From IMG/VR virus record IMGVR_UViG_3300044267_004763, positions 1 to 47,062 of that record: 47,062 bases of DNA; one strand, given 5' to 3'. A program made the position numbers and the translations under genes. The notes under the pieces were generated by a model. That model searched no databases. It saw only the letters and a list, made by a program, of their open reading frames with translations, and was not told where the DNA came from. The stretch comes from a virus. Lineage: Duplodnaviria; Caudoviricetes. Within the stretch, counting starts at the first letter, position 1. Every line of letters begins with the position of its first letter. Shown one piece after another: positions 44,722 to 45,242 of the stretch.

Positions 44722-44759
44722 TATTTATATATTTTACATAAAAAAAGGAGGACTGTCAA
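44722..44759 (-). promoter_or_regulatory. Stacked sigma70 promoter (TTGACA-17-TAAAAT) and late promoter (TATAAATA)
   Basis: -35 at 44754-44759, -10 at 44731-44736, late box at 44722-44729. Confidence 0.65.
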
Positions 44760-44771
44760 TAGCCCTCCTTT
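44740..44771 (-). terminator. Rho-independent terminator after the DUF4278 gene
   Basis: AAAGGAGGGCT-attgac-AGTCCTCCTTTTTTT. Confidence 0.8.
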
Positions 44772-44789: not shown

Positions 44790-44945
44790 TTAAGCAACAG
44801 TAAGCCCAGCGTCTAGATATGAAGGTAAAACTTCATCTGCTTTGCTGTGCTTAACACCACGGTAAGTCAATTCAGACTTTTGTGATTGTGTTTGCTTACG
44901 CTCGTTAGTGTCGTACTGGACACCACGATAAGTGACTTTTGCCAT
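44790..44945 (-). CDS. DUF4278-family small protein (51 aa, MAKVTYRGVQYDT...ELTYRGVKH...)
   Basis: Hand-translated; two TYRGV motifs, GGAGA RBS; not in the ORF track. Confidence 0.85.
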   Translation of the reverse strand: MAKVTYRGVQYDTNERKQTQSQKSELTYRGVKHSKADEVLPSYLDAGLTVA

Positions 44946-44975
44946 TGGCTTTCTCCAAAGTAGTGGGATTTTACT

Positions 44976-45153
44976 CCGTTCCTTTAGTCGGCTTTTGCGT
45001 CCTCAAAGCATCCCTTCTCAGTACTCTCTGCCACAATCTGAATAAGTTCAGATTTAGGGGTTTCAGTATGTTGCTGGTATATTGCGTCAACAAGACCAGT
45101 AGCATATTCACATGTTAAGAGACTAGCGAGAAGTAATTCCATAAGGATGAACG
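44976..45153 (-). ncRNA. Second glutamine-riboswitch-like motif with an ORF-sized P2 loop
   Basis: CGTTC-A-TCCTT[...]GAGGA-CGCA-aaa-GCCGACT-aaa-GGAACGG; same skeleton as the adjacent compact copy. Confidence 0.55.
44984..45142 (-). CDS. Small two-Cys protein (52 aa, MELLLASLLTCEYATG...GCFEDAKAD) nested in the RNA motif
   Basis: ATG 45142 to TAA 44984; track ORF 44984-45223 trimmed. Confidence 0.7.
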   Translation of the reverse strand: MELLLASLLTCEYATGLVDAIYQQHTETPKSELIQIVAESTEKGCFEDAKAD

Positions 45154-45156
45154 ATT

Positions 45157-45204
45157 CCGTTCCGAGTCGGCTTACTTGCGACCTGAAATGTATCAGGTTG
45201 AACG
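45157..45204 (-). ncRNA. Glutamine-riboswitch-like RNA (Downstream-peptide/glnA class)
   Basis: P1 CGTTC/GAACG, P2 ACCTGA/TCAGGT, CGCA junction; upstream of DUF4278, the known context for this class. Confidence 0.7.
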
Positions 45205-45213
45205 ATTGTGTTA

Positions 45214-45242
45214 ATACTAACACATGTATAGTATATAGTCAA
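45214..45242 (-). promoter_or_regulatory. Sigma70-type promoter of the riboswitch/DUF4278 unit
   Basis: TTGACT-17 nt-TAGTAT; predicted start just before the first RNA motif. Confidence 0.65.

Follow-up and report, generated by a model that had tools for sequence, protein, structure and literature searches.

Analysis of the window (the whole stretch of viral DNA that was analysed, 47,062 nt long) indicated that its minus strand carries what we read, with a probability of about 0.6, as a glutamine sensor leading a short cyanophage operon, an RNA in which two riboswitch cores are interlocked, a complete gene is nested within them and switching would be coupled. Helices P2b and P3, a long-range pair joining the two copies of the core motifs, the conservation of the ligand-contact bases and the coding constraint on the nested open reading frame (ORF) were seen by comparison of sequences. 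The outer core would be formed by the 5' half of copy 1 and the 3' end of copy 2, and the inner core by the 3' end of copy 1, a 3-nt linker and the 5' half of copy 2, with its P2 closing around the ORF.

Layout of the element

The whole element lies on the minus strand. Two sets of core motifs separated by 3 nt and a 52-aa ORF with two Cys residues in the second loop are all present, as the sequence-only reading had described, and the ORF indeed ends in EDAKAD-stop, the 3' half of the RNA motif encoding its last residues. The two copies, the predicted fold and the surrounding transcription unit are laid out as follows.

45204-45199 (-), CGTTCA of copy 1
45198-45181 (-), hairpin of copy 1, followed by CGCAAGTAA, GCCGACT and GGAACGG (45163-45157)
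3 nt (-), linker from copy 1 to copy 2
45153-45148 (-), CGTTCA of copy 2, followed by TCCTT (45147-45143) and 138 nt
45004-45000 (-), GAGGA of the 3' half of copy 2, followed by CGCA, GCCGACT and GGAACGG (44982-44976)
45199..45204 (-), outer core 5' strand CGUUCA, C1-A6 in type-II numbering; CGTTC invariant in the alignment
45199..45204 (-), P1a, predicted to pair with 44977-44981, the partner being deduced from the cross-copy long-range pair
45181..45198 (-), P2a, a local hairpin; all 3 counted pairs show two-sided changes in the 42-row set
45173..45180 (-), outer core linker, C17 G18 C19 and AAGUA
45178 (-), C19 of the outer core, predicted to form the outer long-range pair with G at 44976 (cross-copy counts)
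45165..45172 (-), 5' strand of the shared P3, AGCCGACU (cross-copy pairing counts)
44986..44993 (-), 3' strand of the shared P3, AGCCGACU; codons K50-D52 and the first base of the stop codon
45148..45163 (-), inner, circularly permuted core, GGAACGG (G35-G41), 3-nt linker and CGUUCA; predicted short hairpin P1b
45142..45147 (-), 5' arm of P2b, UCCUUA; its terminal A opens the nested start codon
45000..45005 (-), 3' arm of P2b, UGAGGA, within nested codons F46-D48
44997..44999 (-), inner core linker C17 G18 C19, nested codons D48-A49
44997 (-), C19 of the inner core, predicted to form the inner long-range pair with G at 45157
44976..44985 (-), (A/G)AA strand opposite AGUA, then outer core 3' strand GGAACGG (G35-G41), from the Rfam type-I consensus
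44984..45142 (-), nested 52-codon ORF of phrog_504, with its stop codon at the P3 end
44946..44975 (-), putative expression platform, with SD-like GGAG at 44953-44956
44790..44945 (-), DUF4278 (IF17-like) gene, 51 aa
45237..45242 (-), -35-like hexamer TTGACT, from a consensus scan, 17-nt spacer
45214..45219 (-), -10-like hexamer TAGTAT, within the palindrome 45207-45224
a few nt upstream of 45204 (-), transcription start predicted from promoter spacing
44744..44771 (-), intrinsic-terminator-like hairpin, ending a unit of ~460 nt

Setting and distribution

The source DNA is a 47-kb linear virus record in which thymidylate synthase, PhoH-like and thioredoxin-domain genes lie near the element. 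DNA relatives of the element were detected in 39 of 50,697 phage records, every one of them named Prochlorococcus, Synechococcus, Cyanophage or Marine virus, and the virus is, judging from its sequence, likely a T4-like marine cyanophage.

The copy-1 pattern occurred once in the window and in none of 100 shuffles, which excludes a chance origin. At 76 of 80 viral loci found by protein search alone, two GGAACG motifs were spaced 171-181 nt apart, and at the remaining four the layout was cut by contig ends. A wider DNA pattern search left both P2 arms unspecified and so reached more distant members; the junction was present in 52 of the 80 matches listed, and the 28 listed matches without it were removed before counting. 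Of these, 27 were aligned (all except L124) and were rejected as unrelated chance matches. The long-form junction was estimated at ~2300 viral stretches from 4 of the 64 parts of the collection, and a related pattern at ~1400 metagenome stretches; 119 metagenome loci enter here as a count only.

The C-form pattern was found in 13 stretches among 185,579 host genomes. In the picocyanobacterial order the element was present in 2 of 301 genomes, both times on contigs of ~190 kb, one of which equals a record of the viral collection in length (L215, L352), and we read these provisionally as phage DNA inside cell assemblies. RNA-library contigs from four studies cover the element; they are unstranded, come from relatives of the window sequence and may include DNA carry-over. 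One of them, 198 nt long, covers 44965-45162 with five differences and two gaps relative to the window, and ORF-less forms appear in such contigs as joints. The element is real and widespread among viruses.

The nested ORF and the cassette-like loops

A profile search with the 52-aa nested protein, which has two Cys residues, matched phrog_504 over residues 2-50 (E 3.6e-6), a family of unknown function; the ORF has relatives in 13 phage records. No Pfam family was matched, no PDB match was obtained at E 0.001, and the Atlas matches were unnamed clusters only. Its viral look-alikes are uncharacterised cyanophage proteins. The structure was modelled as a hairpin of two helices (pLDDT 72.8), and a resemblance to NblA or CP12, considered as well, found no support.

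Coding constraint was read by hand from alignment A4, which holds 56 rows picked by hand for diversity from ~150 junction-bearing loci, 55 of them distinct ORF-bearing rows. All 16 invariant or near-invariant positions in codons 3-44 fell on the first (3) or the second (13) base of a codon. The 52 true pattern matches were all in frame, with lengths of 168, 171, 177, 180 or 183 nt, the search pattern having imposed the ATG and not the reading frame. Each of the 32 ORFs chosen for the protein alignment was open and the first Cys was invariant. The nested ORF is conserved and likely translated.

The six P2b pairs that close around the ORF were 96.6% paired in A4, and three of the six change on both sides; one of them was U-A in 28 rows, C-G in 19, U-G in 5 and broken in 3. 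Since one arm of P2b is non-coding and the other coding, this covariation is not explicable by constraint on the protein. In L027 one base is lost on each P2b arm, altering the reading frame of the last codons, which indicates that the conserved C-terminal residues reflect the RNA and not the protein. The earlier reading of a long-range P2 around an ORF is supported, P2 being a real covarying helix and the ORF a conserved coding one.

Comparison of relatives revealed that the loops are occupied in different ways. The ORF is in the second loop only in the window and in P-SSM2, in both loops in P-HM2, AG-345-L05 and L121, in the first loop only in L215 and L338, and in neither loop in S-PM2; S-CREM1 has a short second loop. 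The first-loop ORF of the both-loop phages starts at the first P2 arm and has its stop inside AAGUAA. In L121 it is phrog_6471, the family of the 67-codon ORF that occupies the P2a loop in other phages. The first-loop ORF at L338:171-378 has a long hydrophobic N-terminus and two Cys, stops just 5' of the P2 3' arm and appeared by eye to be closer to the second-loop family than to phrog_6471. Short second loops were estimated at ~520 viral stretches and the ORF pattern gave an estimated ~190 raw viral matches, one third of them by chance, and these two figures give no ratio, as the patterns differ in strictness. The many relatives without a nested ORF indicate that the ORF is dispensable for the RNA.

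Such ORF-less forms, S-PM2 among them, are common enough to suit a reading that we consider rather unlikely, namely that the interlocked riboswitch is real but has simply taken up a small gene, as a passenger, in a peripheral loop that tolerates it; the gene would be co-transcribed and perhaps co-regulated, without ribosome feedback on the switch. That either loop can carry an ORF, from two different PHROG families, points the same way, and glutamine binding and translation may alternate across molecules or times. However, in both loops and in both families the start codon lies at the P2 stem and the stop codon in or beside the core, so that the folded and the translated state cannot coexist on one molecule. 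Moreover, protein searches would reveal ORF copies without the RNA; of the 80 loci found with the nested protein, 76 have the RNA layout and the other four are cut off. The earlier proposal that translation and folding are mutually exclusive thus follows from the anatomy of the predicted fold, with the start at the P2b arm and the stop at the P3 end.

Riboswitch class and ligand

At gathering thresholds Rfam gave no matches in the window. The glnA and Downstream-peptide models, proposed earlier for copy 1, both match it but remain below gathering, at 34.2 bits for RF01739 (gathering 35, E 2.7e-5) and 29.3 bits for RF01704 (gathering 33). Natural short-loop relatives, standing in for a loop-deleted copy 2, scored 30.9-33.9 bits with RF01739 in six of seven cases, and L201 gave no match to this model at E 0.01. 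In L395 the type-I model threads a single aptamer with a 49-nt insert in P3; this threading is the interlocked path and agrees with an outer core that encloses the second core.

The core motifs are present twice and with conserved contact bases, as expected of the glutamine-riboswitch-like RNA proposed from the sequence. The glutamine contacts described in the type-II crystal structure are C1, G18, C39 and G40 (PMC6698751), and in our alignments these bases are invariant or nearly so in both cores. The critical long-range pair is given as G23-C60 in type I (PMC6212724) and as C19:G41 in type II (PMC6698751); C19:G41, a type-II feature, is found in both cores, and the Watson-Crick pair at the type-I G23-C60 site is C-G in the window. 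The type-II pseudoknot helix 3' of G41 is absent, as had already been noticed: the Rfam alignment has gaps and non-pairs there, and the strand 3' of G41 is engaged instead in the cross-copy P3. A three-way P1/P2/P3 junction is formed by the cross-copy arrangement only, in which P2 and P3 covary and P1 is invariant. AGUA of the outer core faces AAA in the window and GAA in many relatives, and the inner core is without an AGUA/GAA motif. In the Rfam type-I consensus AGUA/GAA stands at the base of P3, a motif known as an E-loop. In the first core of L030, L072 and L073, A6 is changed to G jointly with C17 to U, at a position that is coplanar in the type-II structure.

We class the element as a glutamine-riboswitch variant with a new architecture; by a strict test it belongs to neither Rfam type. 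Glutamine is probably the ligand. We regard it as very unlikely that the RNA was derived from a glutamine aptamer and now serves another ligand or a protein binder, or that only one core binds. The scores below the Rfam thresholds, the incomplete architecture with respect to either type, the missing AGUA/GAA motif of the inner core and the near-absence from host genomes (2 of 301) would be compatible with a changed ligand, but both cores retain every glutamine contact defined in the crystal, and the genes under control belong to the family usual for these riboswitches.

Covariation and topology

Topology was assessed in A4 and in an independent alignment, A5, whose 42 rows have a short second loop and comprise 41 of 120 listed loci, hand-picked for diversity, and the window. 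The rows of both alignments are related, and the counts are of sequences, not events; L030 is misaligned at its 3' end in A4, and the P1a 5' columns of A5 are off in rows with a long first loop. For the whole interlocked structure 92.6% of the A4 cells were paired, against 88.8% after shuffling, and 44 cells were changed on both sides against 13.6, a value reached by none of 500 shuffles; slid registers were 26-49% paired. The interlocked structures of A4 and A5 beat all 500 shuffles in cells paired and covariation score, and also all slid registers. Tandem versions likewise beat the shuffles on cells paired and covariation score because the P2 helices are common to both topologies, so that discrimination rests on the counts for individual pairs.

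The end pair of the cross-copy P3 was U-A in 29 rows, A-U in 8, G-C in 2, broken in none and gapped in 16 in A4, and G-C in 17, U-A in 17, A-U in 7, broken in none and gapped in 1 in A5. The short P3 form, seen in 16 A4 rows, has lost 2-3 nt on the 5' strand together with 3 nt on the 3' strand. Overall P3 was 82.7% (A4) and 77.7% (A5) paired, with two A-C mismatches in the long form. When taken from copy 1 to copy 2, the outer long-range pair was G-C in 23 and C-G in 18 rows of A5, broken in none and gapped in 1, a flip that may represent one or few events among related phages. The inner long-range pair was G-C in 53 rows, G-U in 1 and other in 1 (the misaligned L030) in A4, and an invariant G-C in 41 rows of A5.

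Pairing within each copy showed the opposite. The within-copy long-range pair is broken in 23 of 42 A5 rows for each copy, and the local P3, just two pairs with zero compensatory changes, loses its end pair in 10 of 40 rows and, in A5, in 24 of 42. The tandem aptamers of the sequence-only reading, that is, two self-contained aptamers in series, were therefore rejected in view of broken within-copy pairs set against intact, compensated cross-copy pairs, and we give this arrangement hardly any credence although the P1 strands are identical between copies, so that either pairing is possible on paper, Rfam gives single copies 33-34 bits, glutamine riboswitch doublets have been reported (PMC9481103), and such a fold could occur as a co-transcriptional intermediate. 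A dimer, in which the cross-copy pairs join two mRNA molecules, is just as improbable: covariation is blind to intra- versus intermolecular pairing, and a type-II aptamer is described as having crystallised as a strand-exchanged dimer and as working in two pieces (PMC6698751), but the nested intramolecular fold accounts for all pairs without a high RNA concentration, and a linker of just 3 nt makes P1b more likely to form as a local hairpin.

Cross-copy pairing places the nested gene within both cores, and the comparative evidence makes it very probable that the element adopts one fold, with an outer type-I-like core, an inner circularly permuted core and a P3 common to both. The long-range P1/P2 covariation sought across phages was thus recovered in part, as P2 covaries (three of six pairs in A4) but P1 is invariant. 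P1b does not vary in either alignment and so is without covariation support, and since neither P1a nor P1b varies we infer their partners. The minimum-energy fold of the window predicted P2a, P1b and P2b (z -2.2) and did not predict P3 or P1a, and RNAalifold on the ORF-bearing alignment returned P1b only and zero long-range helices. A weak P3 would fit a fold stabilised by its ligand.

Downstream gene, platform and transcription signals

The gene 3' of the element matches DUF4278 with 29.5 bits (cut-off 25.3), confirming the earlier assignment, and the position 5' of a DUF4278 gene is the one expected of both glutamine riboswitch types. The protein (44790-44945) contains the motif (V/L)TYRGV twice, ~22 residues apart. 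In L119, L126, L155 and L158 the gene 3' of the RNA has a MNTL-like start instead of the usual DUF4278 start, and the regulated gene may differ there.

Single-sequence folds of the expression platform in the window were weak and ambiguous (z -0.35 and -0.15) and pointed both ways, so the direction of control for DUF4278 is a guess by analogy; RNAalifold on the region 5' of DUF4278 returned no pairs and no consensus fold. In the G-form L336, the base of the long-range pair begins an 8-bp helix that covers the SD, as in gifB. Phages of the G-C form (L336:461-484 and other A5 rows) have a downstream region unlike that of the C-G form, with a clear anti-SD helix, and the two forms may rely on distinct expression platforms, perhaps even with outputs of opposite sign.

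A promoter-like TTGACT-17-TAGTAT lies 5' of the element and a terminator-like hairpin 3' of DUF4278. The scan had a background of 1.9 promoter-like sites per shuffled region, so that support for the promoter comes mainly from conservation: in 21 aligned leaders both boxes are conserved, the TG of the -35 box is invariant and the preceding T nearly so. The palindrome 45207-45224 (-) surrounds the -10 box; its arm sequences vary between phages and their complementarity tends to persist. In alignment A8 the pairing was 68.6% and 15 cells had changes on both sides, values equalled by 3-5 of 500 shuffles, with a register that varies between rows. The position of the palindrome, 5' of the predicted start, would allow a role at the DNA level, as an operator or a hairpin, or in RNA from read-through. 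The region 44731-44771 (-) holds a further promoter-like site, TTGACA-17-TAAAAT (11 of 12), which overlaps the terminator hairpin and would drive the next genes, thymidylate synthase included.

Proposed mechanism

Host riboswitches of both types are reported to control DUF4278 genes in a nitrogen-dependent manner, and the proposal for gifB is that glutamine melts a helix sequestering the ribosome binding site (an anti-RBS helix) beside the long-range pair and so frees that site (PMC6212724). For the glutamine-sensing, coupled leader that we favour, both cores would fold at high glutamine, P1b and P2b would cover the nested start codon and the nested gene would be turned down. The 3' core strand would at the same time be locked and expression of the DUF4278 (IF17-like) gene would probably go up, by analogy with the host riboswitches. 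When glutamine is low, ribosomes translating the nested ORF would traverse P2b and P3 up to a stop inside the core, which would stay unfolded, and unfolding held by ribosomes would sharpen or delay the switch. Two small proteins would in this way be tied to the nitrogen state of the host, likely in opposite directions.

We propose more tentatively, and with somewhat less than even confidence, a general form of this leader: a strand-swapped double glutamine sensor in a single chain, whose loops serve as cassettes for genes (neither loop filled, the first or the second one, or both) and which acts as a cooperative, ribosome-coupled toggle reading host nitrogen. The ligand would close the RNA over up to two genes and open a third, and ribosomes would hold the sensor open.

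Comparison with known systems

Riboswitch aptamers are normally compact and non-coding. Coding sequence within structured RNA is known from the ORFs in peripheral loops of group I and II introns and from the reading frame inside tmRNA, and the element resembles these in that respect. It differs from them in that the gene is hosted by a predicted metabolite sensor of a 5' leader, with the start and stop codons placed within helices of that sensor.

The element shares with the glutamine-I riboswitch (RF01739, the Synechocystis gifB leader described in PMC6212724) the P1/P2/P3 junction of the outer core, the long-range pair and the position 5' of a DUF4278 gene; P3 of the outer core is flanked by AGUA and (G/A)AA, against AGUA/GAA in type I. 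Where glutamine-I has a P3 hairpin, the P3 here is a helix that runs over ~170 nt and has another core and a gene inside it; the long-range pair of the window is C-G (G-C in 23 of 41 relatives) and the score of 34.2 bits is below gathering. With glutamine-II (RF01704, as described in PMC6698751) it has in common C1-A6, C17-C19, G35-G41 and the C19:G41 pair, all of them here twice, and a short DUF4278 ORF downstream, whereas the pseudoknot helix 3' of G41 is missing and the inner core is circularly permuted.

Glutamine riboswitches have been annotated in T4-like cyanophages, and Rfam annotations of them are reported for the marine phages S-CREM1 (PMC9964418) and Melnitz (PMC9004378). The 99-nt glnA element annotated in S-CREM1 contains the same junction as the window; as far as the accessible text of the two reports goes, they are at the level of annotation, without structure or nested ORF. 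Our literature search, which covered few subscription journals, came across neither cross-paired cores nor a gene within the loop of an aptamer; the glnA alignment in the supplements of PMC2864571 may contain these sequences.

Double glutamine aptamers are usually taken as independent tandem copies. The tandem, pseudo-cooperative glutamine riboswitches (PMC9481103; PMC2864571) are alike in carrying two sets of core motifs per leader, while here the copies pair with each other and not each with itself; the accessible parts of these two papers make no mention of phage, a nested gene or cross-pairing. If the leader works as we infer, one RNA could regulate neighbouring genes oppositely, the sensing of host nitrogen by cyanophages would become directly accessible through an IF17-like protein, and it would be explained why standard Rfam scans miss an element estimated at ~2300 viral stretches. 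Every layout is found in cultured phages, P-SSM2, P-HM2 and S-PM2. The layout resembles the strand-exchanged dimer of the glutamine-II crystal (PMC6698751), here in one chain, and the covariation points to a natural counterpart of that strand-swapped dimer made of a single chain, one of whose cores is circularly permuted and whose loops hold whole genes.
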